The notes under the pieces were generated by a model that ran no database searches, was not told where the DNA came from, and saw nothing but the letters and a program-made list of their open reading frames with translations. This document shows positions 43,281 through 59,678 of a DNA stretch of 64,000 bases, in pieces. Source of the DNA: Bacteriovoracia bacterium (GTDB taxonomy: Bacteria; Bdellovibrionota; UBA1018; CAIPTA01); assembly GCA_050246755.1 (NCBI GenBank), contig JBFWVL010000001.1, positions 1,248,001 through 1,312,000 on the forward strand, read 5' to 3'. The translations under genes and the position numbers were made by a program. Numbering within the stretch: the first letter of the stretch is position 1; every line of letters starts with the position of its first letter.

Positions 43281-44258
43281 TTAGGCGTTATACGCGCGGC
43301 TCGACGCGCGCTCCAGGCGGTCCCAAATCGCATCCCAGATTCCGCCTTCTTGTTCTTTGCGGCGAAACACGTAGATAAAGGTAGCGCCGGAATCCGAGCA
43401 CTCGCGCATCCGCAAATAGAGCGAACGGGCCGCAATCCGCGGGTTAGCGTCCAGACGTAGCTCCGCCCCCTGCACGTTGCGCTCAAATTGAAAATCCGCG
43501 CAAACTTCATCGCGGGTACTCTGCTTTAACGCCGGCCCATTCTGCCGGATGATCACGAGTGGAATATTGGGCATATAGTGATTTTCGGTATTGCCGGGTG
43601 AGGCCATACTGGACGCGCGCCGTACTTCGAACGGCAGTCCCCGCTCCTTTAGCGCCGCCTCGAGGAGATCGGCCGTCACGGCTCCTGGCCTCAGCACCGT
43701 CACGATGCCCTTGCCATTTTCTTCCGTGATGGCCACCACGGTGGATTCCAGGCCCACTTCAGACTGGCCCCCGTCGAGAATGAAAATATCCTCTTTTTCG
43801 AACCCTTTACGCACGTGTTCGGCCTTGGTAGGGCTGGTTTTCCCGAACTTATTGGCACTAGGGGCCGCCAGCGGAACCTCGCATTTCTTGATGAGCGCCC
43901 TAGCCACCGGATGCGCGGGCATGCGGATTCCCACCGTTTCTAGCCCGGCGGTAATGAGGGGATTCAAGTTAGGGTGTTTAGGTAAAACCATGGTGAGAGG
44001 GCCTGGCCAAAAACGCTCGGCGAGAAAATCCGCCAAAGGCGGCCAAGAGGAAATTACCTGTTCCTTTTGCTCTAGATCGTCGATGTGTACGATCAGCGGA
44101 TCGAAAAAAGGCCTTTCCTTGATGGCAAAGATCTTCCGGATCCCTTCTTCGCTCTGAATGGAGGCCGCTAAGCCATAGACCGTTTCTGTCGGCAGAGCTA
44201 CCACGCCCCCCGATAGGATCAATTTTTTCGCCTGCTCTAGCTCGTGGTCTAAGGTCAT
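43281..44258 (-). CDS. sua5: Threonylcarbamoyl-AMP synthase, Sua5 (TsaC2) form
   Basis: PTETVYGL, KERP..PLIVH, FWPGPLT, APSAN, ESTV, SPG....HY linker. Confidence 0.93.
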   Translation of the reverse strand: MTLDHELEQAKKLILSGGVVALPTETVYGLAASIQSEEGIRKIFAIKERPFFDPLIVHIDDLEQKEQVISSWPPLADFLAERFWPGPLTMVLPKHPNLNPLITAGLETVGIRMPAHPVARALIKKCEVPLAAPSANKFGKTSPTKAEHVRKGFEKEDIFILDGGQSEVGLESTVVAITEENGKGIVTVLRPGAVTADLLEAALKERGLPFEVRRASSMASPGNTENHYMPNIPLVIIRQNGPALKQSTRDEVCADFQFERNVQGAELRLDANPRIAARSLYLRMRECSDSGATFIYVFRRKEQEGGIWDAIWDRLERASSRAYNA

Positions 44259-44279
44259 AAATTATACTATAAGGGGCCT

Positions 44280-44912
44280 ATGAAACTCTTTGGTACCTAT
44301 CCCTCGCATTTTACCCGAAAAGTCCGGGTGGTTCTGCAAGAACTGGGGCTGGAATATCAGTTTAACGTGCTCCCGAGCTTAGGGGAAATAGGGGTAGAGC
44401 ATTTTGCCAATAATCCGCTCCTCCAGCTACCGACCCTAGTGTATGGCGAACGGGAAATTATCGAATCAGACATCATCTGCCGTTATTTACTGGAAAATTT
44501 TGGGCAAAAATCCCCGGAACTACGTTTTTTACCGTCGAGCGGGGATAAGTACGCTCACGAAAAAAGGTTAGCCGTAATGAATGGCGGCATGGCCGCGGGC
44601 GTTAAAATTATTCGCGGGAAACGCAGCAATATACCAAATTTTATGGAGTTCCTTTTGTTTCGCCAGGAAGCGGCCGCGCTCCAATCGTCCCTAAAGTGGC
44701 TCGATGCAGACTTAGGCCATCGTACTTGTTACCAGGCCGGCGAATTTACTCTGCTTGATATCACCCTGGTGAGCTTCGCCGACTGGGCCGTGTTCCGCGA
44801 AATGATTCCCTCGCTCGCCGCCTTTCCCAATCTTCAGCGCTTCGTGGAAGCCAATCGCGGTCGGCTTTCTTTGGCCAGCACTCATCCCGCGCTCGAGGGG
44901 CCGGTAAAATGA
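44280..44912 (+). CDS. Glutathione S-transferase family protein
   Basis: SHFTRKVR, NPL..LPTL, ES..ICRYL, FTLLDI, FPNL. Confidence 0.88.
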   Translation: MKLFGTYPSHFTRKVRVVLQELGLEYQFNVLPSLGEIGVEHFANNPLLQLPTLVYGEREIIESDIICRYLLENFGQKSPELRFLPSSGDKYAHEKRLAVMNGGMAAGVKIIRGKRSNIPNFMEFLLFRQEAAALQSSLKWLDADLGHRTCYQAGEFTLLDITLVSFADWAVFREMIPSLAAFPNLQRFVEANRGRLSLASTHPALEGPVK

Positions 44913-45373
44913 AAACGTTTTGCCGCCTCTACTACCGCATCCCATTTTCCGAAACCGACGCTATGGGAATCGTTCATCACTCCAACCACGCCAAATATTT
45001 GGAACGGGGAAGGGTGGAATTTCTTCGCCTGATCGGCAGCAGCTACGGCGAAGTGGTAAAGGCGGGTTTTCATTTTCCCCTCACGGAACTTCGCACGGAA
45101 TTTAAACGCCCGCTGGTCTTCGATGAAGTAATTTTGATCGAAACCGAGATCTCGAAACTGACGCGCACCCGCATGAATTTTTCTTATAAAATTTATTCGG
45201 TGAAAGAGCTGGCCCTGCCTTCGCTGGCCCACGAGCCCTTTACCGAGCGCGCCAAAGTACTGGGCGAAACATTTCATTGCTGCACAAACATGCAGAACCG
45301 GCCGGTAGAAGTGTCGCCGGAATTATTTGCTACACTTCAAGGCGCGTATGGAGGCCAAGATGATAACGATTAA
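44909..45373 (+). CDS. Hotdog acyl-CoA thioesterase (YbgC/4HBT class I)
   Basis: FSETDAMGIVHHSN..YLERGR. Confidence 0.9.
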   Translation: MKTFCRLYYRIPFSETDAMGIVHHSNHAKYLERGRVEFLRLIGSSYGEVVKAGFHFPLTELRTEFKRPLVFDEVILIETEISKLTRTRMNFSYKIYSVKELALPSLAHEPFTERAKVLGETFHCCTNMQNRPVEVSPELFATLQGAYGGQDDND

Positions 45374-46136
45374 ATCGGAGCGCGAGATCCAGCTGATGCG
45401 AGCCGCAGGAAAATTGGCCGCCAAGTGCCTTCGCGAAATGGGCGCGCTGGTAAAGGCCGGAAATACTCCGCTCGAGATCGATCGCGCTTGCCGCGAATGG
45501 ACCTCGCGCCACGACGCCATCCCCGCACCGCTTAATTATAAAGGCACTTACCCGGCCAGCCTCTGCGTTTCGGTGAACGATGTGGTTTGCCACGGCATTC
45601 CCGACAAGCGACCATTTAAAAACGGCGACATCGTGAATCTCGACGTTACGCCGATTCTCAACGGCTACCACGGCGACACGAACGCCACTTTTTTCGTGGG
45701 GGAGGTTCCGGAAGACGTGAGGAAGTTCGTGAGCACCGCGTACCTCGGGATGTGGGCGGGAATACGGCAGGTTCGTCCGGGAAATACGCTGGGCGACGTT
45801 GGCTACGCGATCGAGACGCTGGTGAAAGCTCGTGGTTATTCGGTTGTTTTGGAATATTGCGGCCACGGCATCGGCAGAAATTTCCACGAAGATCCGGTGG
45901 TAATGCACGTCGGTCGTCCCAAGCAGGGCGTGATTCTTAAGCCCGGCATGACCTTCACCATTGAGCCAATGATTAATATGGGTGGCGCAAAAACCACCGC
46001 GGACGACGACGGCTGGACCGCGCGCACGGCCGACGGCTCTTTGTCGGCGCAGTTTGAGCATACCGTGCTCGTTACTCCAGACGGCGTGGAAGTCCTTACC
46101 CTGGGAGAAGGCGAAACGCCTCCGCCGGCGCAATGA
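45360..46136 (+). CDS. map: Methionine aminopeptidase type I
   Basis: CVSVNDVVCHGIP, GDIVNLD, GHGIG..FHE, FTIEPM, SAQFEHT; GGAGG RBS. Confidence 0.97.
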   Translation: MITIKSEREIQLMRAAGKLAAKCLREMGALVKAGNTPLEIDRACREWTSRHDAIPAPLNYKGTYPASLCVSVNDVVCHGIPDKRPFKNGDIVNLDVTPILNGYHGDTNATFFVGEVPEDVRKFVSTAYLGMWAGIRQVRPGNTLGDVGYAIETLVKARGYSVVLEYCGHGIGRNFHEDPVVMHVGRPKQGVILKPGMTFTIEPMINMGGAKTTADDDGWTARTADGSLSAQFEHTVLVTPDGVEVLTLGEGETPPPAQ

Positions 46137-47218
46137 TCGACAGCCAAGAAATCATTGAACGAGCGCGCGGCACCGGGCCATTCTTCGCACTCGCGGAATC
46201 CAGAAAGCCTACCACCTTTGCGTGGGGAGAAGGAACGGGCGAAGAACTCTCTTGCCGGCTAAGTAAATTTTATTCTCCGCTCGATAAAAGCTCCGAGCTC
46301 TGGAGCGGATTCTCCCTCTTCACCAACCTGCGCCCCATGCATTCGGAGACTCTGGAGCGCCTTCCGCTCATTTCTCCGGTGCGCCACCTGCCTCCTCCAG
46401 CGGTAGAAGAAAAATCTAATTGGAATCAGCTTTGCGCCAAGATCGCCGACGCAATCGACTCTGGGCTGCTTCAAAAAGTGGTTCCCGCGCGCCTTCGCTC
46501 CTTTCCTCTCCATCCCGAAGAAAGAAGTAAAATTCTAGATTCTATCTTCGCCAATCTATTCGCTCCGTCTTCCGCGAATGCCTATCGATTTTTGGTGCGC
46601 GAGAAAGAAGACGTATTTTTTGGCGCGACGCCAGAATTATTATTTCGCCGAGAAAATGAAACCATTTTTGTGCCCGCCATCGCCGGCACTCGCGCTCTTT
46701 CCATCGCCACCGAGGCGGAAGCCACTGCCGATCTCATGGAATCCGCCAAAGAACGCGAAGAGCATTCGCTGGTGGTAGAGGGAATTATTTCCAGCCTCCG
46801 CTCGTTGGGCCTTAGGCCTAAAGCCCCCAAAGCTCCCGACATCCTGAAGGTGCCCGGCCATATCCACCTTTTTACGCCCATTTCGGCGGAAGATACTGGC
46901 CTGATCCCGAGTGAGCAATTGATGGCCGCGCTTCATCCCACCCCCGCCGTTGGCGGATGGCCAAAGGTGCCGGCACAGGATTTTCTTTTTACCCACGAAC
47001 GCTGGGACCGCGGGCTTTTCGCCAGCCCTATTCTTTTTCAATTCCCGGAAAAGGAAATCTGCTTGGTTGCTATTCGTTCCGGTTTACTCCGTGCAGACGG
47101 CTTACACCTTTTTGCGGGGGCCGGATTTGTGCGTGAATCCCAGGCCGAAACTGAGTGGGCCGAAACCGATCGAAAAATGGATGTTCTACAGTCTTTGCTC
47201 ACGGGAAAATCGCTATGA
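46133..47218 (+). CDS. menF: Isochorismate synthase
   Basis: KVV.AR, GATPE, AGT, KEREEH, LHPTPAVGG, VAIRS, AGAG; men operon context. Confidence 0.88.
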   Translation: MIDSQEIIERARGTGPFFALAESRKPTTFAWGEGTGEELSCRLSKFYSPLDKSSELWSGFSLFTNLRPMHSETLERLPLISPVRHLPPPAVEEKSNWNQLCAKIADAIDSGLLQKVVPARLRSFPLHPEERSKILDSIFANLFAPSSANAYRFLVREKEDVFFGATPELLFRRENETIFVPAIAGTRALSIATEAEATADLMESAKEREEHSLVVEGIISSLRSLGLRPKAPKAPDILKVPGHIHLFTPISAEDTGLIPSEQLMAALHPTPAVGGWPKVPAQDFLFTHERWDRGLFASPILFQFPEKEICLVAIRSGLLRADGLHLFAGAGFVRESQAETEWAETDRKMDVLQSLLTGKSL

Positions 47219-48942
47219 ACGATTCTAACTCCACCTTATCATTTCGCGCGGCCCTCGTGGCGATGAGGCAACTGGAAGCCTCTGGAGTAAAAGTGGTCGT
47301 GGCGTCTCCAGGCCTGCGTAACTCCCCTTTGCTTTTAGCGGCCCACCAAACTCCCGGCCTAAAAGTTATAACCGCCGTAGACGAAAGGGGCGGGGCCTTC
47401 CTCGCCTTGGGTATCTGCCGGGCCAAGCGGGAGCCTACGGCCATCCTCTGCACCTCCGGCACGGCCGTGGCGAATTATTTTCCCGCTGTTCTCGAGGCAA
47501 ACCATTCTCAGCTTCCCCTGGTGGTATTAACCGCCGATCGCCCCACGGAGCTCGTGGGCACGGGGGCGAACCAGTGCACCGACCAAACGAAAATTTTTGG
47601 CTCGCACGTGCGGTTTTACGCCGAAGTAGGCCCCGTGGCCGCTACCGCTTCGAGCCTAGAGCAAGCAGCCTACGCCGTGGGACGCGCGGTCGCAAAGGCT
47701 CGGGGACCGAGCGCGGGCCCCGTGCACCTCAACCTCCGCTTTCGGGAACCTTTCCTCCCCGAAGCCGGAGCATTTCCCGACTCTTCGCGGCCCACCGGCC
47801 AACCCTGGGCATTTTTCCAGGCGATCTCTGCGCCGACGCAAGAACACGCCGAGGCGATCCGGTCGCTCCTCGAGGGTGCAGAACGCCCTTTAATCCTCCT
47901 TGGTCCAGCTCAACTTTCTAAGACTGACGCGAAGATGCTTGCGCAATTTTCGCACCGCACTCGCATTCCCCTGCTCGCAGAAGCGGCTTCCGGAATCGCT
48001 TTTCAGGGGAGTGATTCTTCTCCGTATACCATTCATCGTCTCGAAACGATTTTAGAGCAGATGCTGGATGGCAAGTTGCCCGCGCCGGACTTAATCCTCC
48101 GTTTCGGGGAACCCGTCACGGGCCGCGCACTGGGAAGGCTCCTCGCTAAGCATCCCGTTCCGCAATTGGTGTTTGAAGAATGGGGAGAGGCCAGAGAGCC
48201 GAATCTTCATCCATCTATTTTTCTCGAAGGCGGCCTATCTCTTTGGATTGCTTCGCTCGCTCAAATGGAGACTCCCCAAGTAAATCGCGCGTGGCCTGAA
48301 GGCCTGCTGAAAGCAGACGCGGATCTAGAATCCGACATAACGCTCCACCTCGACCAGGAAGACACGCTGACGGAGTGGCACTTCCATCGCGCGCTCGCCG
48401 AAAAAATCGGCGACTCCGCGGCGATTTTCATCGGGAACAGCATGCCGATCCGTGATTTTAATTCAGTATTTCCGCGCTCTCCAAAAAATTTCTCCGTGTT
48501 TGCGAACCGTGGCCTTAGCGGCATAGACGGCCTGCTGGCCACCGCGGCCGGAATCGCCTTCACCACGAAAAGTGAAACGCACGCCGTGGTGGGTGATCTC
48601 TCCGCGCTCCACGATATCAACTCGCTGGCCCTCCTCCATTCGTTACGCGAAGAAATAAACCTCACGGTTTGGGTGATGAATAACGGCGGAGGCGAAATTT
48701 TTCGGATTGTACCAACCGCAAAAACGGGAGAAAATATCGAGTGGTTCACCACTCCCCAGGAATTTGACCTGGCCGGCCTCGCAAAAGGATTCCGCATTTC
48801 TTACGCTCGTCTCTATAACCAGCAAGATCTTGCCGAGTTATCGGGAGAAGCATTTTCACATCGCGGAGTACGTCTGATCGAAGTTCTATTCGACCCGGAA
48901 ACTAATCTTCACGTGAGGAAGTCTTTCCAGGATCGCAAATGA
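47215..48942 (+). CDS. menD: SEPHCHC synthase
   Basis: SPGLRNSPL, DERGGAF, CTSGTAVAN, GNSMPIR, NRGLSGIDG, GDLS, NNGGG.IF. Confidence 0.95.
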   Translation: MNDSNSTLSFRAALVAMRQLEASGVKVVVASPGLRNSPLLLAAHQTPGLKVITAVDERGGAFLALGICRAKREPTAILCTSGTAVANYFPAVLEANHSQLPLVVLTADRPTELVGTGANQCTDQTKIFGSHVRFYAEVGPVAATASSLEQAAYAVGRAVAKARGPSAGPVHLNLRFREPFLPEAGAFPDSSRPTGQPWAFFQAISAPTQEHAEAIRSLLEGAERPLILLGPAQLSKTDAKMLAQFSHRTRIPLLAEAASGIAFQGSDSSPYTIHRLETILEQMLDGKLPAPDLILRFGEPVTGRALGRLLAKHPVPQLVFEEWGEAREPNLHPSIFLEGGLSLWIASLAQMETPQVNRAWPEGLLKADADLESDITLHLDQEDTLTEWHFHRALAEKIGDSAAIFIGNSMPIRDFNSVFPRSPKNFSVFANRGLSGIDGLLATAAGIAFTTKSETHAVVGDLSALHDINSLALLHSLREEINLTVWVMNNGGGEIFRIVPTAKTGENIEWFTTPQEFDLAGLAKGFRISYARLYNQQDLAELSGEAFSHRGVRLIEVLFDPETNLHVRKSFQDRK

Positions 48943-49655
48943 GTTTCGTTTACCTGCACGGAATGGGGGGAAGCCCGGCAGATTGGCGCCAGGTGCAATC
49001 TTTTCTTCCCGGAACATCTATTGCTCTTCCGGCCAGCGAGTCGTTCGCCGAAATGATTCCTTTGCTCGCGGAAAAAATTTCAAAAGTTCCCGCGCCGGTG
49101 CTTTGCGGCTATTCAATGGGCGGAAGAGTCGCTCTTCTTTTGGCGGAAGAACTGCTGCGCCGGCAAATCCCGCCCGCGGGGGTAGCGCTTCTCTCCGCGG
49201 GTACGGGTATCTCCGGAGAAAAGGAGCGGGAGCTCCGCAACCAGATCGACGAGAAATGGGCTAAACTTGCCGCGGAGAATCCAGATAAGTTTTGGCAAGA
49301 CTGGTACCGGCAGCCCCTGTTCGCCTCTTTTTCCGCCCTACCGGTCCATCTGCAAAACGAATGGTTAATTGATAGAAAATCTATTGATTTCAATTATTTG
49401 TCTCAACAGCTGCGTGATCTTGGGCCGGCCAAACACCCCGACCTTCTTCCTATCTTTCCCAAGTTGCGGGCCGCTTCGATCTCCGTGCTTTACTTAGCCG
49501 GAGAACTGGATAAAAAGTACTTAGATCTCGCGCAAATACTGGCAAAACAGGAGCGGGCAACGGTGGAAATAATCCCGGGGGCCGGCCATATTTTGCCTCT
49601 CGAAGCGCCCAAAAAAATAGCGGAACGGTTGAGAGCTTTTTTCCCGTACGCGTAG
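48939..49655 (+). CDS. menH: SHCHC synthase (alpha/beta hydrolase)
   Basis: LHG, GYSMGGR, WYRQPLF, GELDKK, AGH. Confidence 0.9.
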   Translation: MSFVYLHGMGGSPADWRQVQSFLPGTSIALPASESFAEMIPLLAEKISKVPAPVLCGYSMGGRVALLLAEELLRRQIPPAGVALLSAGTGISGEKERELRNQIDEKWAKLAAENPDKFWQDWYRQPLFASFSALPVHLQNEWLIDRKSIDFNYLSQQLRDLGPAKHPDLLPIFPKLRAASISVLYLAGELDKKYLDLAQILAKQERATVEIIPGAGHILPLEAPKKIAERLRAFFPYA

Positions 49656-49667
49656 CAGGAGAAATAA

Positions 49668-50522
49668 ATGGCAAAAAATACCGACAGAAAAATTCTACCC
49701 GCCGATATTACTTGGCAACCCGCAGGAAAATTTCAGGATATTAAGTATGAAAAGTCTCCGGAAGGAATTGCCAAGATCACGATCAATCGCCCGGAATCAA
49801 GAAATGCTTTTCGCCCGCAAACCGTAAACGAGCTCATCACTTGCTTTAACGATGCGCGCGAAGATCCCAAGGTTGGCGTGGTCGTGCTGACCGGTGAAGG
49901 CCCTGATGCATTTTGCTCCGGCGGCGATCAGCGAGTACGCGGCGATAAAGGGTACGTAGGTTTCGATGGTGTACCACGCCTCAATATCCTCGACGTACAA
50001 AAGCAAATTCGCAGCATGCCAAAACCCGTGGTGGCGATGGTGGCCGGTTACGCAGTTGGTGGAGGCCACGTACTGCACGTAGTATGCGATCTCTCCATCG
50101 CGGCTGACAATGCCCGCTTCGGCCAAACTGGCCCCAAGGTGGGCAGCTTCGACGGCGGATTCGGCGCTAGCTACCTCGCCAGCATTGTCGGCCAAAAGAA
50201 AGCCCGTGAAATTTGGTATCTTTGCCGCCAATATAACGCACAGGAAGCCCTTGATATGGGACTCGTTAACACCGTGGTTCCCCTAGAAAATCTCGAATTG
50301 GAGACTATTTCTTGGTGCCGCAAGATTCTCGAGCATAGCCCGCTCGCGCTCCGTTGCTTAAAATCGGCCTTCAATGCCGATCTAGACGGCCAGTCAGGCA
50401 TCCAAGAGCTTGCCGGCAATGCCACTCTCCTCTATTACATGAGCGAAGAAGCTCAGGAGGGGAAGAAAGCCTACGTGGAGAAGCGCCGCCCGGACTTCGG
50501 TCGTTTCCCTCGGGTTCCCTAG
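49668..50522 (+). CDS. menB: 1,4-dihydroxy-2-naphthoyl-CoA synthase
   Basis: [35 protein letters not shown]. Confidence 0.98.
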
Positions 50523-51395
50523 ATGTCGCCTTGGATTTCCGCTTCCCGGCCTAAAACTTTGGTAGCGGGATTAATTCCGGTGGTTTTGGGTTCAGCCTTG
50601 GCCTTCCAGCAGGGGGGGTTTCGTCTGGCCGTATTCCTATGTGCACTAGGGGGAGCGCTGGCGATTCAGATCGGGACGAATTACGTAAACGACGCTTCCG
50701 ATTTCGAACGCGGGGCCGATAGCTTAGATCGACTCGGCCCCCCGCGAATGGCGGCTTCCGGGCTCCTCACTCCCAAAGCCCTCTACCAGGGAGCGGGCAT
50801 CGCATTTTTTATCGCATTGCTGTTTGGTATTTATTTAATCGCCACCGCCGGTCTTTGGATGTTGGCGATTGGCTTATTCTCTATTTTTTTCGCCGTAATT
50901 TATACTGCCGGTCCGTTTCCTCTCGCCTACCTTGGGCTCGGAGATTTTTTTGTACTCGTTTTTTTCGGCCTAGTGGCGGTGCTAGGCACGGTATTCGCTC
51001 ACTTGCACCGGATCCCGCCCGAAGCCACCTATCTCGCCTTAGCCACCGGACTGCAGGGCGTGGCGCTAATCGCGGTCAATAATCTTCGTGATATTCCTAC
51101 CGACAAAAAAGTGAACAAAAAAACTTTGGCCGTTCGTCTTGGCGATCGCGGATCAAGATTTTATTATTCCGCGCTCGTTTTTCTGCCTTACTTACTATGG
51201 CTTCCGCTACAAATGCGGCTCGGGGGAAGCTTTGGCTTTCTTCCCTTGCTTTCGCTTCCGCTTGCCTTCTCGAACGTCGATACTTGTTTTCGGATTCAGG
51301 ATCGCCGCCAGTTCAATCGACTTCTCGGAAAAACGGCCGCACTGCAGCTTCTTTTCGGAATTCTGGCCGTGGTCGCCCTGGTAAATGCCGCGTGA
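50523..51395 (+). CDS. menA: DHNA polyprenyltransferase
   Basis: RPKTL, NYVNDASD..RGAD, YTAGP, NNLRD..D....K.TL. Confidence 0.95.
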   Translation: MSPWISASRPKTLVAGLIPVVLGSALAFQQGGFRLAVFLCALGGALAIQIGTNYVNDASDFERGADSLDRLGPPRMAASGLLTPKALYQGAGIAFFIALLFGIYLIATAGLWMLAIGLFSIFFAVIYTAGPFPLAYLGLGDFFVLVFFGLVAVLGTVFAHLHRIPPEATYLALATGLQGVALIAVNNLRDIPTDKKVNKKTLAVRLGDRGSRFYYSALVFLPYLLWLPLQMRLGGSFGFLPLLSLPLAFSNVDTCFRIQDRRQFNRLLGKTAALQLLFGILAVVALVNAA

Positions 51396-52408
51396 CCTCC
51401 TCCTTTTCCTTCGCGGTGTACGAGCGGAATTTCACTGCACCTTTTCGTTATGGCCAAGAAACCCTAACCTCGCGGCGGGGCGTAATTATTCGCCGCCACA
51501 ACTCCGAAGGATCGTTCGTATGTTCCGAGGCATCACCTTTGGCGGGTCATTCTTCCGACCGCCTGGAAGAGGTGATTCAAACCTTGGAGCATAGCAGCTC
51601 CGCGCAGCTAGAAATGAATCTTATTCATTCAGAAAAATCTGCCGATCTCCCGGCCTCTCTCCGCTTCGCTCTCGAGGGCATTGCGATCCAAAGTGAAAAT
51701 TACGGAAATTTTCAGCCCGTTCACTCCAACGCGCTATTGCCGTGGCTAGGGCCAGAGCAAACACTAAGCCGTTTTAGAATTTTACAGCGTGAGGGTTACC
51801 GCACTTTTAAAGTCAAAATCAGCGACGAATCAATTTCGCAAATTCCCATTTTTTTAAAGTCGATTCCCGATACCGGCTGGAAAGTTCGCCTCGATGGAAA
51901 CCGCGCTCTTTCTCCGGCTCCACTTGCCCAATTTTTCCAGGAAGTCTCGCGCTTAGAATTGGCTGGACGCATCGACTACCTGGAAGAACCGCTTGCCGGA
52001 TGGCAGCATCCTCTTTTACGAGAATCCCCACTTGCGCTCGCGGCCGATGAAAGTGCCGGATCTCCGCAGGCGGCTTTGCGCCTTCTTGAAACGCCGAATT
52101 GCCCGCAGGTTTTCATCTTGAAGCCGACGGTATTGGGAGGATTAGCGTCTGTGTCACCGCTGGCCTCCCAGCTTAAGCGAGCGGGGAGACGCGCAGTATA
52201 CACTTCCGCCCTAGAGACTGAACCGGGCCGGCGCTCGATTATCGCTCTTTTGGGCAGGGAAGGAGCAGGAGAAGTGCATGGGCTTTCGACTGGCTTTTTG
52301 TTTCGCACCAATCTTCTTCCCGATGTCCCGCTATATGGAGAACTTCCGGTTATTTCCATGGAGGAAAAGCAGCTTTGGCAGGCATTAGACTGGCGCGGAT
52401 GCCCCTAA
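51392..52408 (+). CDS. menC: o-succinylbenzoate synthase
   Basis: KVKI, RLDGN, YLEEP, ADES, ILKP; GTGA overlap with menA. Confidence 0.88.
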   Translation: MTSSFSFAVYERNFTAPFRYGQETLTSRRGVIIRRHNSEGSFVCSEASPLAGHSSDRLEEVIQTLEHSSSAQLEMNLIHSEKSADLPASLRFALEGIAIQSENYGNFQPVHSNALLPWLGPEQTLSRFRILQREGYRTFKVKISDESISQIPIFLKSIPDTGWKVRLDGNRALSPAPLAQFFQEVSRLELAGRIDYLEEPLAGWQHPLLRESPLALAADESAGSPQAALRLLETPNCPQVFILKPTVLGGLASVSPLASQLKRAGRRAVYTSALETEPGRRSIIALLGREGAGEVHGLSTGFLFRTNLLPDVPLYGELPVISMEEKQLWQALDWRGCP

Positions 52409-53706
52409 TTATAAAGGCTCCGCACACTCCTCCCGAAACGATTGCGGAGTCAGTCGCCGAGCGCGCGGCAATTCTAAACGCCGTCGAGGGAAAAGATTTT
52501 TTGTTGTTGCCGGTGGAAGATCCCATAGAAGCCATCACTTGGGCTGTCGCCTCTTTTTATTCTCCGCTAGCGGTTGTGCCGATTTCCGCCAGACTTCCAC
52601 ACGTGGCTCTTGAGCGGCTCCTCGCTCAGCTTCCAGCCGAAAAAATGATTCATTTGGCTAACCTACCAAAAGCCGCAAGGAAAATCCCGCTCGCCGAAAA
52701 ATCGCGCGAGCGCATTTGGGCGGTTCTCTTTAGTTCCGGATCCTCGGGCGAACAAAAAGGAATCGCTCTGAGCGGAAATGCGCTTGAAGCCAGCGCCCGG
52801 GCGCACGCGGCCCATTTGGAAATGCAATCCGGGAACTGGCTGCTTAATCTTCCGCTGTTTCACGTTGGCGGGTTCAGCGTGGTAAGCCGCTCCTTCTTTC
52901 TTGGTACCGGAATGGCGATAGGCTCGCCGAAATTTTCTGCCGAGGAAACGCGGGCATGGATAGAGAGCGGAGAAATTTCCGGGCTTTCCTTAGTTCCCAC
53001 CACGCTGCGGCGCCTGCTTGCGCTGCCAGATTTGCCTTTTCCGAAAAGCTTAAAAACCATTCTCGTGGGTGGAGCTCCGCTGCCCGATGAGCTTTTTACT
53101 CTGGCGCAGGCCCGGAATTTTCCCGTGCAAGCGACCTATGGAATGACGGAACACGCTTCCCAGATCGCTACCGCGAAGTGGCCGGGCAGTGGGCTTATTC
53201 CTCTTCCGGGAGTGAATATTTCTGTGGATAAGGCATCGGAAATTCTCGTTAGGTCGCCTTGCCTGGCTTCTGGTTTTTTTTCCGCCGGCCAGATTCAACC
53301 ACTGCCCCTCGAGGGCGGATTTTTCCGCACCGGCGACCTCGGTACCTTCGACGGGACCGCACTCGCAGTGCATGGCAGAAAATCGGACCTAATCCTTTCT
53401 GGCGGACTAAATATATTTCCGGCAGAAATCGAGAAAGAACTAGCCCAGTTTCCAGGCCTATCCGATTTTGCCGTAACCGGCTTGCCCGATACGGAGTGGG
53501 GTGAAGTGGCCTGTGCCGCCTATGTTTGCCTCGACCGAAAGCTGGATACACGGGAGTTACGGGCCTTTTTACAGGAGCGCCTAGATGCAAGAAAGGTCCC
53601 TAAGCACTTTGTCTCCCTCGACTACATACCCCGCTCTTCGCTGGGAAAGGTGATTAGAACGGAGCTGAAAGAACGTCTTCAGAAGAAGATTCTCGCCGTG
53701 GAATAA
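52399..53706 (+). CDS. menE: o-succinylbenzoate-CoA ligase
   Basis: FSSGSSG..KG, LPLFHVGG, YGMTE, TGDLG, SGG.NI.P.EIE. Confidence 0.9.
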   Translation: MPLIIKAPHTPPETIAESVAERAAILNAVEGKDFLLLPVEDPIEAITWAVASFYSPLAVVPISARLPHVALERLLAQLPAEKMIHLANLPKAARKIPLAEKSRERIWAVLFSSGSSGEQKGIALSGNALEASARAHAAHLEMQSGNWLLNLPLFHVGGFSVVSRSFFLGTGMAIGSPKFSAEETRAWIESGEISGLSLVPTTLRRLLALPDLPFPKSLKTILVGGAPLPDELFTLAQARNFPVQATYGMTEHASQIATAKWPGSGLIPLPGVNISVDKASEILVRSPCLASGFFSAGQIQPLPLEGGFFRTGDLGTFDGTALAVHGRKSDLILSGGLNIFPAEIEKELAQFPGLSDFAVTGLPDTEWGEVACAAYVCLDRKLDTRELRAFLQERLDARKVPKHFVSLDYIPRSSLGKVIRTELKERLQKKILAVE

Positions 53707-54243
53707 ATGTCCTATCATGGACGTATGAATAAACCCTGGGCGCGCGGTCTAGTTAGCGCATTTCTAATTTTTCATTTAGTGGGAGTTTTCACCGCCCCCA
53801 ATCCTTACTCTTACTTAAGTCAATCTATTGCCCCCGTCTATCGCCCATACATGAATTTTTTCGGGCTCGCACACACTTGGGGATTCTTCGCGCCCGAGCC
53901 AATTTCCCCGCCACTTTATATCGACTACACGCTCGAAATGAAAAATGGACTCGCGGTAAGCGGTCGTTTTCCCGATGAAACCAACCCATTCTTTTTCCGT
54001 GATCGCCACAATCGCCGGATGAGCATGAGCCGCTTTATCGCCTCCACCGACGAAAATATACGCAATATGTTTGTGCGCTATTTATGCCGGCAGCACCCAG
54101 GCATGACGTCTGGAAAGCTTTGGCGCGTCGTGGGTTCACAACCTTCGCTGGAGATGGTGCAAAAAGGGGAAAGGCGGATGACCGATCCCGTAGAATTTAA
54201 GATCGACGTCTTGGGAACTTACTATTGCCCGGAGGACTTATGA
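53707..54243 (+). CDS. SdpA/DUF5819-like membrane-anchored protein
   Basis: N-terminal TM with His, then Y...F.....WGFFAPEP, the motif typical of partners of HTTM/SdpB proteins. Confidence 0.65.
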   Translation: MSYHGRMNKPWARGLVSAFLIFHLVGVFTAPNPYSYLSQSIAPVYRPYMNFFGLAHTWGFFAPEPISPPLYIDYTLEMKNGLAVSGRFPDETNPFFFRDRHNRRMSMSRFIASTDENIRNMFVRYLCRQHPGMTSGKLWRVVGSQPSLEMVQKGERRMTDPVEFKIDVLGTYYCPEDL

Positions 54244-55190
54244 TTTCTTGGCTAAGATCACAAATCCTCGCGCTAGGCACGGGCTGGAATTATTTTTGGT
54301 TCGATTCACGCTCGAATGCCCAGCTCACGTCTCTGGCTATTTTCCGTTTTTGCTTCTGCCTGGTTATGTTTTTTTTCTATTTTTCTCGCGCATTCGACGT
54401 GGAGTTCTTCTATTCCGGAACCGGAATTCTTCCGGCCTGGTACGCAAAAAATTTGCCTTTCTTTCAATACCATCCAACTATTTTTACCGATTCCAGTCCG
54501 CTTTGGCTATTGCACGGCCTGCACACCCTATTTTTAGCGTTACTGCTTTCGCAGGCCCTTGGTTTGTTCACCAGGTTTTCCGCGATCGGCACGTACGTAT
54601 TGCATATTTTATTTTTGAACCGCAACCTCAGCGCCATATTTGGCGTAGACATGATCGGCACATTTTTTCTCCTCTACCTCTGCTTTGCAAACTCGAACGC
54701 CCGCTATTCCATAGACGCCTGGCTGGGCCGGGGAAGCAAGCGACAATCGGCGGCAAGCCATATTGCATGGCGCCTCATGCAGCTGCAGGTTTGCGTCGTT
54801 TATGGATTTTCCGGGCTGGAGAAGTGCAAGGGCACCCGCTGGTGGGATGGGTCCGCACTCTGGGATATTCTTTCCATGGGAAATCTACAGCGCTGGGATA
54901 TGAGTTTCATGGCACACGCCCCAGTGCTGCTCGCCACCGGAGTGTACGTAGTTCTTTTTTGGGAAATCTACGTTCCGATATTGGTTTGGGTACCACGCTT
55001 AAGATTACCGATGCTTCTATTCGGAACCTTCATGCACTTAGGAATTTTCCTATTCATGAATTTGCCGGGCTTTGGATTTATGATGATTTCTCTTTATCTT
55101 CTTTTCTTAAAGCAGAATGAAATCGAAAGTGGCGTGGCGAACGTGAAAAATCTCGTTAATAAATATTCGTTCATTCCCAGCCGTAGTTAA
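54240..55190 (+). CDS. HTTM domain protein (SdpB / vitamin K-dependent carboxylase-like)
   Basis: LAIFR, GLFTR, RN....G.D, QLQVCVVYGFSGLEK..G..W.DG, HLGI; ATGA overlap. Confidence 0.85.
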   Translation: MISWLRSQILALGTGWNYFWFDSRSNAQLTSLAIFRFCFCLVMFFFYFSRAFDVEFFYSGTGILPAWYAKNLPFFQYHPTIFTDSSPLWLLHGLHTLFLALLLSQALGLFTRFSAIGTYVLHILFLNRNLSAIFGVDMIGTFFLLYLCFANSNARYSIDAWLGRGSKRQSAASHIAWRLMQLQVCVVYGFSGLEKCKGTRWWDGSALWDILSMGNLQRWDMSFMAHAPVLLATGVYVVLFWEIYVPILVWVPRLRLPMLLFGTFMHLGIFLFMNLPGFGFMMISLYLLFLKQNEIESGVANVKNLVNKYSFIPSRS

Positions 55191-55782
55191 AACTAATACT
55201 AATGCGCGGCTCGTGGGATGCATTCATCGGCACCTCATGCCTTAACCAGCTTTCAAACAGAAGCAGCGACCCTGATTTAGGGGCAAATTCCACGAAGGTG
55301 CGGTTCGTTTTGCTTGCTCCGGCTCTCTTCGGGGGCGCCCCCATAAAACCCGGTAGCCGCGGGTCCTCGAATTTAATCGCGCTAGCCCCCTTAGGGGTGC
55401 TTACGTAAAAAGTTCCGCTGATCACGGATAAAGGATGGAGATGCAGGCCATGATGCACATTTACCGGCATGATGTTTATCCAGCAATTGGTCATGGCAAG
55501 CCTACCGCCCTGCAAATCGAATTCGAGGGCGGCGGAAAATTTTCGCACGTGCCTATCAATAATTTTTTCCAGGGCGCCGAAAGTAGGAGACACCCGATGA
55601 AGGTTGTTGGCCGACGCATAGGAAGTAAATCCATTGCGGTAATTTTTCTTAGACCAATGCACACCCGCTACGTCCAAGCCGGCTATGTCATCCACTTCGG
55701 CTAAAAGCTGCCTTCGGCGAAATGATTTTCCCGTCAGCGTTGCTTGGTAGAGAAGCGTTGGAAATAGGCGCTCGATCGACAT
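55171..55782 (-). CDS. TIGR02466 family putative 2OG-Fe(II) oxygenase
   Basis: LFPT, WINI, HLHP.SVISGTFYV, FESWLRHEV, RISISFN. Confidence 0.9.
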   Translation of the reverse strand: MSIERLFPTLLYQATLTGKSFRRRQLLAEVDDIAGLDVAGVHWSKKNYRNGFTSYASANNLHRVSPTFGALEKIIDRHVRKFSAALEFDLQGGRLAMTNCWINIMPVNVHHGLHLHPLSVISGTFYVSTPKGASAIKFEDPRLPGFMGAPPKRAGASKTNRTFVEFAPKSGSLLLFESWLRHEVPMNASHEPRISISFNYGWE

Positions 55783-55783
55783 T

Positions 55784-56263
55784 TTAGTTTCGAACTAAAT
55801 CAACCGAACACGCATAACGATTGCCGTTTGATATTACGCTGCGCGAACATAGTATTTTAACCGACTCATCGGTATCGGAAAAAATTTTTGCGTCGCCGAT
55901 GCGACCAACGTATACGACCCCGCTCATAGACTCGTAAAGCGCTTTCGCGTCTCCGCCAAAAAGCATCATTTCTTCTGCATCTTCCATTTCATCCGCCTGA
56001 ACGGAAACGGAGCAGGCGGTAGCCAAAAATGAATTTTGGCGGCAGCTGATTCCAATTGGGTTTTCCTTGCCTTCAAAAATTTTCTCTCTGGCTTCGTCGG
56101 TCCCGGATAGGGGCAAGTCCAAAGCGCCGAATAGCTGCAGGGCATTGGGGCCAGACAGGATCCGGGTTACCATCTTTTTATTTCCTGCGGCCTTCGGCAT
56201 GGCTTGCGCAGCTGGCAGGGCCGAGCAGAGGGCGAAGGCTAAGAGAGAAAGCGACTTTTTCAT
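55784..56263 (-). CDS. Exported hypothetical protein with two internal repeats
   Basis: Signal peptide; repeated G..A..L(F/Y)...KIF....I.C...ACSV unit. Confidence 0.75.
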   Translation of the reverse strand: MKKSLSLLAFALCSALPAAQAMPKAAGNKKMVTRILSGPNALQLFGALDLPLSGTDEAREKIFEGKENPIGISCRQNSFLATACSVSVQADEMEDAEEMMLFGGDAKALYESMSGVVYVGRIGDAKIFSDTDESVKILCSRSVISNGNRYACSVDLVRN

Positions 56264-56400
56264 TTTGTCTCCGTGGGTGATTCAAAGATCTAGGCGCAAC
56301 CTAGCATACTTGATTAAAATGGTACAACATAAAATTTAATAAAAGCGCCACCTTAGCTCCACCGAGGGGACGACCAAAAAAGCCGCGTGATTTTATATAG

Positions 56401-57159
56401 TTAGCGCCAAAAAAACCCTGAGGGCAGCACGACGGCCGCTTTTTCTGAGGTTACGATTGCAGAAGGATTCTCCCATTTCAGCTCTCCACCAGTAACTGCC
56501 CTTAGCTCAAGCACGGCCGTGGAAGAAATTGGGGTGTCGGGCCGTACCACGCGCGCGCTTACTTTGCCGCGCTCCACGATGAGATGCTGATTAGTTCTCT
56601 TTTTATCCGCGTCATCATATACCTCTACCAATACACTCGCCTCTTCTTGCGACTGAATCTCCACCTCGCCAATCGGGGAGCCCCATAAAACACGGATATT
56701 CTTTCCGATTATACGCACTCGGCCAACGCTTACCGGGGTGAACCGCATAAGCTGTCCGGGCGCTCTTTCGATAACCGCGCGAATGGGATTAACAGCTTGA
56801 AATTCGAATTCATGCCCCAAAGAATCATGGCAACGTAATTTTTTGGGATTCGGCGCGGGCTCGGTTAGCCAAACGGGCCGCGCGAAAGGGAAAAAAAGAA
56901 ATGGGCTGAGCTCGAGCCGCTTAGGCGGCCACAATGCCTCGGAAAATTTTCCGGAAGAGCTGCTACAGGTGCCGGCAATCTCGTCGAAATAATGGGAAAG
57001 CCGGTTTTTCCCGTTAAACCGCTCCTGAACGATGCTGAGAGAAGAATCGATTTTGAAAAAAATACTGCGCGAACCATGACCAGGACTTGTAAACCAAAAA
57101 TACGCGGCGATACCCGCTAAAAAAAAGACACCGATCAAAGCTAAAATGATTCTTTTCAT
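56401..57159 (-). CDS. Membrane-anchored hypothetical protein
   Basis: N-terminal TM, 252 aa, ATGA overlap with the upstream gene. Confidence 0.65.
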   Translation of the reverse strand: MKRIILALIGVFFLAGIAAYFWFTSPGHGSRSIFFKIDSSLSIVQERFNGKNRLSHYFDEIAGTCSSSSGKFSEALWPPKRLELSPFLFFPFARPVWLTEPAPNPKKLRCHDSLGHEFEFQAVNPIRAVIERAPGQLMRFTPVSVGRVRIIGKNIRVLWGSPIGEVEIQSQEEASVLVEVYDDADKKRTNQHLIVERGKVSARVVRPDTPISSTAVLELRAVTGGELKWENPSAIVTSEKAAVVLPSGFFWR

Positions 57160-58217
57160 TTCGATATATTTTCACCACTGATGAATTCTTGTGGCGCAGT
57201 CGCATTAACTGGATTCGGCTCCGGTATTCCTGGAGAAACTTGGCTAATTTCTGGCTGGTGGATAAAGGCCTGAAAGGCCGTCGTTCCACAAAATGGAGCC
57301 TCGAATTCTCTGCCGGTAATTCGAAAGCGGGCAGGATTACTGGCGTCGGAGGAGATCGGGTAATTACGTGCGGCGCAACTCTTGAGCGCCTCGCCCTCGG
57401 CACACTTAATGGCCGTTAAAATTAAAAATGGCGAAGTTGTTTTTTTAAAAGGAATGGAAAATTCTACCGCGCCCTTACTGAAGTCTATAAATTGATAATG
57501 AATTGCCACTGCATCCAGGTCGTCCGGAAGAATTTTATCTTGGGAAACGCTGCTGGGAGGAACCTCATCGGGAGAAACCACTAACGCGAATTTACCTGCC
57601 TGGTTATTTTTTAAAAAATCGGCCGAGGGCGTAATCTTCCCGGACAATAGAACGGAGCTAGAAGAGCAATTTTCGCCACCACCATGCCTATAGAAGCGCG
57701 TTAAATACAAATTCCCGATGTCCACCGCCTCAGGCACGTTCATGCTTTCTACTTGCTCCTTCGAGAGAGCAATTCTTTTTCTGCCATTTACCTGCGGCTG
57801 AGCGAGAAGCGATCGCATTTGCTCTAGCGAAGTAGAGGCATCGAATCGGTAGGTGGCAAAAACAGTTAAATTATCTTTGATCAGGCCTCTGCTTTTAAGG
57901 TCGGCTCGCGAAAATGTTCGGCTGAACTTTATGGGAAATTTTGGCTCCGGTATCGGTAGGCTGATCAAATCCACGGGCGCATAAAGCGGACCGCTGAAAA
58001 GATGAATAACTAGCTGTCCATGGCCATTCTTGACCGCGGCTTTAAGTGGCGGCGGAACAACAATCGTGCCCGAGATCGTAAATCGATCTTTCGGACCAAT
58101 CGCCAATGCTAGATCGGCTTTTTTCGCTTCGGGTGGGACGAAAAGAAAATAGAAAAATCCGGCGATCAATACAAAGGTGGCAGCTAAACCAGAGATAAAA
58201 ATGAGAAAAATTTTCAT
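57156..58217 (-). CDS. Membrane-anchored hypothetical protein with possible tandem Ig-like domains
   Basis: N-terminal TM, 353 aa, upstream GGGAG and TATAAT. Confidence 0.7.
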   Translation of the reverse strand: MKIFLIFISGLAATFVLIAGFFYFLFVPPEAKKADLALAIGPKDRFTISGTIVVPPPLKAAVKNGHGQLVIHLFSGPLYAPVDLISLPIPEPKFPIKFSRTFSRADLKSRGLIKDNLTVFATYRFDASTSLEQMRSLLAQPQVNGRKRIALSKEQVESMNVPEAVDIGNLYLTRFYRHGGGENCSSSSVLLSGKITPSADFLKNNQAGKFALVVSPDEVPPSSVSQDKILPDDLDAVAIHYQFIDFSKGAVEFSIPFKKTTSPFLILTAIKCAEGEALKSCAARNYPISSDASNPARFRITGREFEAPFCGTTAFQAFIHQPEISQVSPGIPEPNPVNATAPQEFISGENISK

Positions 58218-58508
58218 AAGCCCTGCTCCCCTAACTCAGCTCTAATTATAGCTAAAACGCCTGCGTTTTCTTCGGTCAGACTGACGCATTCGTTACTACT
58301 ATTGTTTACTTTCACGGTTAGGAACAACAAGACAATCCGCATTTTAGATGGAGAATTTAGAACTTTGTTGCTTGAGGTACCGACTGCCTATAAGTGGCGG
58401 ATAGTTAGGAAATCCCACTAAATCACCAACTTAGATCATTAGTGCCCGGAGTTTGCCCGCCCCATGCGGACAAGCCCCTTAGCACTACGAATAGCTCCGG
58501 TTGTTGTT

Positions 58509-59678
58509 TCAGGCACTGTGCTCCGCATTGAAAAGCTCCACGGTTCGATCAAGCACCGCCGTATCAGGCAAGAGCTTGAGGCTCGCCGTTCCGCCCTCAA
58601 TCTCAATCCCAGCAAGACGGATGTACCGCTGCATGGTCTTGATGTCTTTCCAACCTCCCATTTTCATCACAACACCAGGAGCCACGCGGTCGCGGATAAG
58701 CTGGGTCGCCCAGCAAGCCCGCAGGGTGTGAAACTTGATGCTCGGAAACCCGCAGCCATCACAGAAGGCCCGCAAGATTTTCGCCTGCTCCCCACGGCTC
58801 CAGGCAATGGGGTGAGGCAGAACGAACTTGTCGTCTCCTGTGACCGCCTTCAGCTCTTGCAGGAGCTTCAGGACTTGCGTGTTCCCGATTGGAACTGAGC
58901 GCCAGTAACGACCCTTGGTGGGGCCGATTCCCGTTTTGCTCGTCCAGTTGCGATGCACATAGATAAGGTTGTTTTCAAAATCCACTTGATCCCAGTGAAG
59001 CGCGTACAGCTCACCGGAACGCATTCCCGTGAAAAGTGCTAACGCCCAGTGATGGAACCACTCGTGCTTGATTTCGCCCGCGTACTTCAGCAAATCCCGA
59101 ATCTGTGTGAGATTCAGAATCTCCGGCATCTTCTCTTCTTCGCGGATCGAGCCTTTGAAGCCCTCCGTGGGAAACGAGACGACACCCTTTAGACGCCCAG
59201 AAAGCGTCGCCCAACGATAGACCGCATCAACCGCGATCCTTAGACGTTTGCGCCGCGATACCGAGACTGTCCGTTCAACGTGATCGAGAGTTTTCCAAGC
59301 CAGCGCACGGTCGACTTCTTTCGCGTGCAGCCGCTCCCATTCCTTGCAATGCGTTCTGATGACAATGGTGTAATCAGCAATCGTATTGGGATTGAGTTGT
59401 TTTTGGAAAATTGTCTCTGCCGCGTTGTAGCCGCTTGCGACCTTCTCCCATTCATCCACAAGGGTTGACCAGAGAAGACCTTTTTGTTCGGCCTCCAGCA
59501 ATTCGCGCTCGGCTTCAAGGAGGAGCTTTCGCTCTGCCTTTTCTGCGGCGGCCAGGGTTTTGAATCCCTTTTGCCGCTTATCAATCTCCAGCCCAACTTG
59601 GACGGAACTTGAACGCCTTGCACGGACTTTGAAAAGCTGCTCTCCGGTTTTTGAATCAATATATGAACTTACCGACAT
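58509..59678 (-). CDS. Tyrosine recombinase/integrase
   Basis: TGMRSGEL, TK, FHTLR, GGW, RY catalytic residues; N-terminal arm-binding-like region (KGFKT..AA). Confidence 0.95.
   Translation of the reverse strand: MSVSSYIDSKTGEQLFKVRARRSSSVQVGLEIDKRQKGFKTLAAAEKAERKLLLEAERELLEAEQKGLLWSTLVDEWEKVASGYNAAETIFQKQLNPNTIADYTIVIRTHCKEWERLHAKEVDRALAWKTLDHVERTVSVSRRKRLRIAVDAVYRWATLSGRLKGVVSFPTEGFKGSIREEEKMPEILNLTQIRDLLKYAGEIKHEWFHHWALALFTGMRSGELYALHWDQVDFENNLIYVHRNWTSKTGIGPTKGRYWRSVPIGNTQVLKLLQELKAVTGDDKFVLPHPIAWSRGEQAKILRAFCDGCGFPSIKFHTLRACWATQLIRDRVAPGVVMKMGGWKDIKTMQRYIRLAGIEIEGGTASLKLLPDTAVLDRTVELFNAEHSA

Follow-up and report, generated by a model that had tools for sequence, protein, structure and literature searches.

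A conserved DUF5819-like and HTTM gene pair of Bdellovibrionota, homologous to the vitamin K-dependent carboxylase's membrane core and joined to a menaquinone operon in one order

At the end of a menaquinone (men) operon in a Bacteriovoracia bacterium (assembly GCA_050246755.1, contig JBFWVL010000001.1, positions 1,248,001 to 1,312,000 of the forward strand, the 64,000-nucleotide stretch that we call the window), two adjacent plus-strand genes encode a small partner protein (P0001; 53707..54243) and an all-helical HTTM membrane protein of 316 amino acids (P0002; 54240..55190). We found that the HTTM protein is a true homologue of human gamma-glutamyl carboxylase (GGCX) that comprises the complete membrane core of that enzyme, that the partner is, by profile comparison, a remote DUF5819 homologue that the Pfam model does not cover, and that the two form a conserved gene pair of the Bdellovibrionota. 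It is highly probable that together they represent a homologue of the GGCX core built from two subunits, one DUF5819-like and one HTTM, in which the partner caps the active site. For the full explanation, in which the pair would use lysine K195 of the HTTM subunit to activate a reduced quinone, in this organism menaquinol, with O2, we see the case as evenly balanced. GGCX controls blood clotting in humans and Leptospira has a carboxylase orthologue; to our knowledge, a reaction has been assigned to very few of the HTTM proteins of bacteria.

The HTTM subunit and its quinol-handling residues

The HTTM protein gave no direct Pfam match even at E ≤ 10, the HTTM model PF05090 included, and its sole NCBIfam match was TIGR04033, the SdpB family (E 7.5e-8), with a score of 32.3 bits where the cut-off is 178.4. 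Among its 117 listed relatives many carry a precomputed PF05090 label, and two HTTM paralogues of the phylum (loci L050 and L051) match that model at 6e-18 and 1.3e-15. A profile built from 40 relatives (A2) matched chains of human GGCX in hmmsearch with E 2.7e-9, the match covering profile positions 22-305. The AlphaFold model (mean predicted local distance difference test, pLDDT, of 93.8) was then compared with known structures: Foldseek at E ≤ 0.001 returned 15 chains, every one of them GGCX (E about 1e-6), and VIA-align superposed residues 11-310 of the model on GGCX 41-330 with Z 23.1 and a root mean square deviation of 3.6 Å over 279 aligned residues, the best unrelated fold scoring only Z 7.9. 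The kinship with GGCX, which the first-pass annotation of this DNA had seen by eye in a single segment, thus extends over the whole core in both sequence profile and fold.

Residue equivalences were read from the HMMER alignment of A2 to GGCX by adding 31 to the chain numbering; with this offset Lys218, Asp263, Phe286 and Phe299 fall on residues named in the GGCX study PMC12647623. As described there, Lys218 is the general base for the hydroquinone, Trp223 stacks on Lys218 and Asp263 adjoins it, Phe286 sits beneath the naphthoquinone ring, Phe299 stacks on CO2, Asn159 binds the Glu carboxylate, and His160 binds Glu and is required for carboxylation (PMC12647623). The lysine that had been matched by eye in the first pass is indeed the one that the alignment pairs with Lys218, namely K195, and the further equivalents are W201 for Trp223, E242 for Asp263 (an Asp to Glu replacement), M265 for Phe286, H266 for His287, F278 for Phe299 and N129 for Asn159. 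Across the 40 sequences of A2, K195, H266 and F278 are invariant, as are R36, Y188, G204 and F289, and W201 and E242 are kept in at least 90%; M265 and N129 lie outside the listed conserved columns. With K195, W201, E242 and F278 kept, the quinol-activating half of the GGCX site is retained in the alignment. Human GGCX (for example PDB 9wfc, 9bux, 9l6q) differs in being a single chain of 758 amino acids with a large lumenal domain that binds propeptide and Glu, whereas the pair consists of the HTTM protein and a separate subunit of 172 amino acids encoded upstream.

The partner subunit and the predicted complex

The partner had been labelled SdpA-like in the first pass, and this label we abandon, since no SdpA-named family, nor any other family of Pfam or NCBIfam, matched it at E ≤ 10. 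A profile from 42 family members (A1) collected 1139 cluster representatives at E ≤ 0.001, of which 316 remained at E ≤ 1e-10, and no relevant Pfam family was found among the 47 distant relatives that were scanned. The protein encoded beside an HTTM-DCC1 fusion (L050, in genome G057), scanned alongside these relatives, gave a weak score for PF19136, the DUF5819 family (E 0.09). In the ESM Atlas the partner falls into unnamed clusters only, commonest in Planctomycetota, Acidobacteriota and Bdellovibrionota.

Its relationship emerged from a comparison with DUF5819 proteins of the same phylum, aligned from their own loci (a homologue search with the neighbour of the HTTM-DCC1 fusion gave only 3 proteins): hhalign placed the partner family with them at a probability of 98.1% and E 1.2e-13, over residues 9-126 and 115 columns. 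At its N-terminus the partner carries a membrane helix (residues 10-29) that contains the conserved His23, and it also has the motif P31-N32-P33, the loop W58-G-F-F-A-P-E-P65 and an alpha/beta domain with conserved Cys127 and Cys174; P31, F60, F61, P63, P89 and C127 are invariant in A1, and its AlphaFold model has a pLDDT of 89.7. The DUF5819 proteins of the phylum share the pattern of His, P-x-N-P and W-x-L-F-A-P-x-P. In the 401 Bdellovibrionota genomes that we sampled, true DUF5819 proteins above the Pfam cut-off are present in 13, as separate paralogues whose genes also lie upstream of HTTM genes, and a search with the Pfam model found no PF19136 protein in the window's genome.

When the two proteins were modelled together, three runs gave an interface score ipSAE (interaction prediction score from aligned errors) of 0.89-0.90, and the best of 3 controls scored 0.00. 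Of 80 solved complexes 58 reach the mark applied to this score, as do 2 of 110 mismatched pairs, a calibration that holds only roughly here since our own alignments were used. The partner is modelled at a pLDDT of at least 79, and the runs share at least 89% of contacts. The partner helix is predicted to lie against HTTM residues 16-21 and 175-186, and partner residues 56-69, which include the WGFFAPEP loop, against HTTM residues 189-201 (with K195 and W201), 131-136 and 274-277, beside F278. The two proteins are therefore predicted, in agreement with the first-pass proposal of a single enzyme, to form a heterodimer whose motif loop lies over K195.

A comparable arrangement has been put forward for a Firmicute, from which a 2026 preprint (bioRxiv 10.64898/2026.08.19.745780) models a DUF5819-HTTM pair as a GGCX-like complex with menaquinol-7 placed at the conserved Lys and two residues of the DUF5819 loop in contact with the pocket. 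DUF5819-HTTM pairs have the gene order of ours, their partners likewise carry a His in the N-terminal helix together with P-N-P and a loop of the form W-x-(L/F)-F-A-P-x-P, and for our pair a heterodimer with this loop at the quinol site is predicted with high confidence. They differ in that our partner family misses the PF19136 model, with homology limited to the stretch aligned above, and in that our HTTM subunit lacks a DCC1-like domain. The preprint also treats MloH as a fused form of HTTM and a DUF5819-like region; this HTTM enzyme of the Streptomyces malonomycin pathway is reported as a bacterial orthologue of vitamin K-dependent carboxylase that carboxylates an aspartyl residue (PMC12647623; 10.64898/2026.08.19.745780). 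Compared by description only, MloH is unlike the pair in being a fusion protein encoded in a natural-product gene cluster. The general idea of DUF5819-HTTM proteins as GGCX-like enzymes with a menaquinol pocket is already in print as a prediction; to it the pair adds a sister partner family outside Pfam coverage and the men-operon context, of which we found no mention in the preprint (10.64898/2026.08.19.745780).

Locus layout and distribution in the phylum

In the window, Pfam assigns the plus-strand genes before the pair, in order, to a glutathione S-transferase (GST), a 4HBT thioesterase, a methionine aminopeptidase (map), menF, menD, menH, menB, menA, menC and menE, and the seven men genes (46133..53706, by Pfam and NCBIfam) cover the classical menaquinone pathway. 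MenD, MenB and MenA score above their NCBIfam cut-offs (390, 449 and 199 bits against 244, 343 and 102, respectively), and MenF, MenH, MenC and MenE have men families as their top NCBIfam matches, yet below the cut-offs. The genes upstream of the pair are a genuine men operon. Within it, the menC open reading frame (ORF) as listed (51197-52408, +) overlaps menA by about 200 nt; the real menC start is probably later, because family matches begin only at residues 69-84.

The menE stop codon TAA occupies 53704-53706 and an ATG follows directly at 53707, so that the zero gap reported in the first pass does exist for a partner of 178 amino acids, but the start is more likely Met7, the ATG at 53725, which leaves 18 nt after menE; the database gene call has 172 amino acids and the homologue alignment also begins at Met7. 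The partner stop and the HTTM start share the ATGA at 54240-54243, confirming the translational overlap noticed earlier. We also looked for a promoter of the pair's own inside menE, a possibility raised by the first-pass annotation: a simple sigma-70 model run over 44000-56500 gave 6 promoter-like sites, against 7.4 expected from shuffled sequence, and none of them lies in or after menE. Going by the spacing, the men genes and the pair probably form one transcription unit in the window's lineage. On the other side, a 2-oxoglutarate-Fe(II) (2OG) oxygenase gene of the TIGR02466 family (55171-55782, minus strand) converges on the HTTM gene with an overlap of 20 nt; this gene keeps its position after menE even in G215, a genome of the same genus in which the pair is missing from that place. 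Further on, three minus-strand ORFs without a Pfam family (159, 252 and 353 amino acids) and then a phage-type integrase (58509-59678) fill 55784-59678 and may mark the edge of a mobile element.

Among the 401 genomes, an HTTM match at E ≤ 1e-10 is present in 131, including all 7 other genomes of the window's family. A scan of genome contigs with the HTTM protein gave just 2 loci and a wider genome search was then used; in 31 of 32 loci examined the partner gene lies directly upstream of the HTTM gene, and the 32nd has no upstream DNA. The men linkage proved not to be unique to the window's genome, since menE directly precedes the pair in 7 of the 32 loci, corresponding to 6 distinct genomes of family f1 with the window's own among them (L001 and L008 represent a single place). 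The same holds for 7 of 41 metagenome loci, in all of which the partner is at least 58% identical. Another arrangement, pair-thioesterase-map-menF-D-H-A-C-E, was seen in G272, whose family is the second one of this order, and in 2 metagenome loci; the genes upstream are divergent there, and the pair stands first in the unit. Among the 32 metagenome loci that lack men genes, upstream DNA of 1 kb or more is available for 9.

Other lineages offered several observations on genes beside the pair. Three loci of family f4 have an ORF of about 670 amino acids directly upstream and glyoxalase, rhomboid, thioredoxin-reductase-like and class II aminoacyl-tRNA synthetase genes downstream; the upstream ORF is conserved and without a Pfam family (L036:1696-3729, L046:11196-13199 and L047:11197-13221). 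In the Bdellovibrio-like family f21, the pair is followed directly downstream, in all four loci examined, by a same-strand ORF of 160-187 amino acids (L038:10501-11064(+), L045:10571-11053(+), L044:9176-9664(-) and L041:9265-9801(-)), with a lipoprotein-like N-terminus, further invariant Cys and Gly residues, and no Pfam family. This ORF could be a third component or a substrate of the pair; searching with the f21 query, we did not find such a downstream lipoprotein in the window's genome. Bdellovibrio-like genomes also have 2-4 extra HTTM paralogues (for example G220:C1:3113001-3114835, G131:C1:2863627-2865432 and G259:C1:2813774-2815579), some of them adjacent divergent copies and some beside true DUF5819 genes.

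Proposed chemistry and competing explanations

As we picture the reaction, the HTTM subunit would be the membrane core that holds the quinol, and the partner, anchored by its single membrane helix packed against that core, would close over the active site with the WGFFAPEP loop and its small domain, which is probably disulfide-bonded and periplasm-facing; this closing role would be that of the lumenal domain in GGCX. K195, stacked on W201 beside E242, would deprotonate the reduced quinone, which in the window's organism would be menaquinol. Addition of O2 would yield a strong base together with the quinone epoxide, and the base would take a proton from a putative substrate at the periplasmic face. 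In the window's lineage, the position of the pair inside the men operon would let the enzyme be made together with its cofactor. Carboxylation may be possible because the CO2-stacking Phe is conserved as the invariant F278; as the actual outcome we hold it to be unlikely, its odds being modest because F278 is kept but His160 is not.

Several observations weigh against this scheme. The Glu-binding half of the GGCX site is not recognisably retained in the alignment, because His160 is replaced by L130 and the Glu-binding Tyr395 and Arg436, like Met401, belong to the lumenal domain and have no sequence counterpart in the HTTM protein. No Gla-type substrate of the pair is recognised, and, as the first-pass annotation had already remarked, no candidate substrate gene lies beside it in the window, its flanks being menE and the 2OG oxygenase. 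Neither subunit matches Pfam directly. For the partner model, Foldseek at E ≤ 0.001 gave no match and the best VIA-align score against 48,161 chains was Z 4.9, with GGCX 402-491 (Z 4.0) among ties and within noise, although such weak matches are not evidence for a new fold either.

Gene neighbourhoods supply further points against quinol use. The men linkage, which the first pass had taken as a hint of quinol use, is confined to the window's order, where it takes the two arrangements described above. Even within that order it is not universal: in G215 the run GST-thioesterase-map-menFDHBACE is followed at once by the convergent oxygenase gene known from the window, and the pair is absent from this place and stands after a phosphofructokinase gene (pfk), and G221, a genome of the same order that is 94% complete, has the men operon and no HTTM match. 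Outside the order, in none of 17 larger loci does a men gene lie less than about 10 kb from the pair (a weak acyl-CoA-ligase match 8 kb from the pair at L049 was set aside in this count), and in 9 of 18 loci from more distant families it is scpA-scpB that stand directly upstream (the nine are from families f21, f25, f33, f37 and f38), preceded by trpS in 6 of the 9; for the other three, the scanned set did not include that gene.

The phylum-wide co-occurrence with quinone synthesis is likewise incomplete. MenD is above its cut-off in 194 of the 401 genomes, and when we cross-read by eye the genomes with HTTM at E ≤ 1e-30 against MenD at E ≤ 1e-40, MenD was found in 72 of 93 and not in the remaining 21, of which 19 are from the window's class and the others are G199 and G334; the 21 range in completeness from 74% to 98%. 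We examined six of them further, five in each test (G041, G278, G230 and G165 in all, G335 for MqnA/D and MenB, and G334 for MenA and UbiA): MqnA/D matches were found in 0 of 5, as was MenB above cut-off, and neither MenA nor proteobacterial UbiA rose above cut-off in any of the five tested for them. Conversely, in family f22 MenD is present in 90 of 100 genomes and an HTTM match in 12, none of these at E ≤ 1e-30. From these searches the pair appears able to persist without recognisable endogenous quinone synthesis, and the genomes concerned may take up quinones made elsewhere or make them by a route that escapes recognition.

These distributions speak for the leading alternative, a membrane enzyme of the GGCX fold whose reaction involves no quinone and which came to stand in the men operon by chance, through local gene shuffling in one order. 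In its favour, the neighbours differ between lineages (scpA-scpB, the glyoxalase and rhomboid set, pfk in G215), and the otherwise identical men locus of G215, cleanly without the pair, fits it well, as do the genomes without MenD and, where examined, without mqn, MenB, MenA and UbiA, and the disparity in f22. Yet the positions that handle quinol in GGCX (Lys218, Trp223, Asp263 as Glu, and Phe299) are the most conserved of the family, and the pair is joined to the men cluster in two distinct arrangements. Moreover, the six MenD-less genomes examined, which are 90-98% complete, all have a homologue of vitamin K epoxide reductase (VKOR), and since VKOR is a quinone-dependent enzyme these cells probably hold quinones from some source; because VKOR is kept there, the absence of men genes counts only partly against a tie to menaquinone. 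We consider a quinone-free reaction unlikely, if far from negligible. Because the linkage belongs to one order and the pair persists without men, mqn and ubiA genes, the dependence of the pair on quinol is plausible and reasonably inferred rather than found.

Alternatively, the pair may act on menaquinone itself, in late tailoring, turnover or salvage of the quinone pool. Its position inside the men cluster in two arrangements, the ability of GGCX to epoxidise vitamin K with the half-site that is conserved here, and the loss of the Glu-binding His160 would all be in keeping with such a role. Menaquinone genes are nevertheless common without the pair (family f22, G221), the pair is found without men genes, and the partner presents a large, conserved surface to the periplasm, which points to a substrate other than the quinone; we rate this role as distinctly improbable. 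A step in menaquinone synthesis proper was also considered as a role for the pair and was rejected by the distribution (f22, G221 and the 21 of 93 genomes without MenD).

The least probable reading, and in our estimate very much so, makes the pair an SdpA/SdpB-type system for the maturation or export of a secreted peptide, on the pattern of the SDP cannibalism locus of Bacillus subtilis, where SdpAB is needed for SDP maturation: the order of a small protein followed by an HTTM membrane protein is alike and the sole direct family match of our HTTM protein is to the SdpB family, but that score is far under its cut-off, the partner lacks an SdpA match, toxin, peptide-precursor and immunity genes are all absent from beside the pair in the window, and throughout the phylum the two genes behave as a conserved, single-copy pair set among housekeeping genes.

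The preferred explanation, activation of a reduced quinone by the pair, can be extended to a vitamin K cycle in bacteria. Of the 401 genomes, 375 have VKOR, mostly in frames of about 400 amino acids, which suggests a fusion to a further domain; being near-universal, it is uninformative as co-occurrence evidence for the pair and was discarded as such. The window's genome has a VKOR homologue (G000:C1:389688-390083, in a frame of 417 amino acids) about 860 kb from the window, and this protein could recycle a quinone epoxide. In such a cycle, Bdellovibrionota would use the pair with menaquinol and O2 to act on a periplasmic protein or envelope component, by carboxylation or another C-H activation, and VKOR would reduce the menaquinone epoxide. 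As a whole, with the action of the pair included, we judge this cycle improbable.

For the GGCX family, the pair would represent a minimal form of the enzyme (316 + 172 residues) that retains the quinol-activating half-site. Since only one lineage shows the linkage and some genomes keep the pair but no men genes, operon context alone is not proof of quinol use; embedding in the operon of the presumed cofactor in one order does provide independent genomic support for an idea that had hitherto come from structure prediction alone. Being small and tractable, the pair also lends itself to direct assays of epoxidase or carboxylase activity, and a vitamin K cycle in Bdellovibrionota, if true, would be a housekeeping, non-eukaryotic form of Gla-type chemistry.

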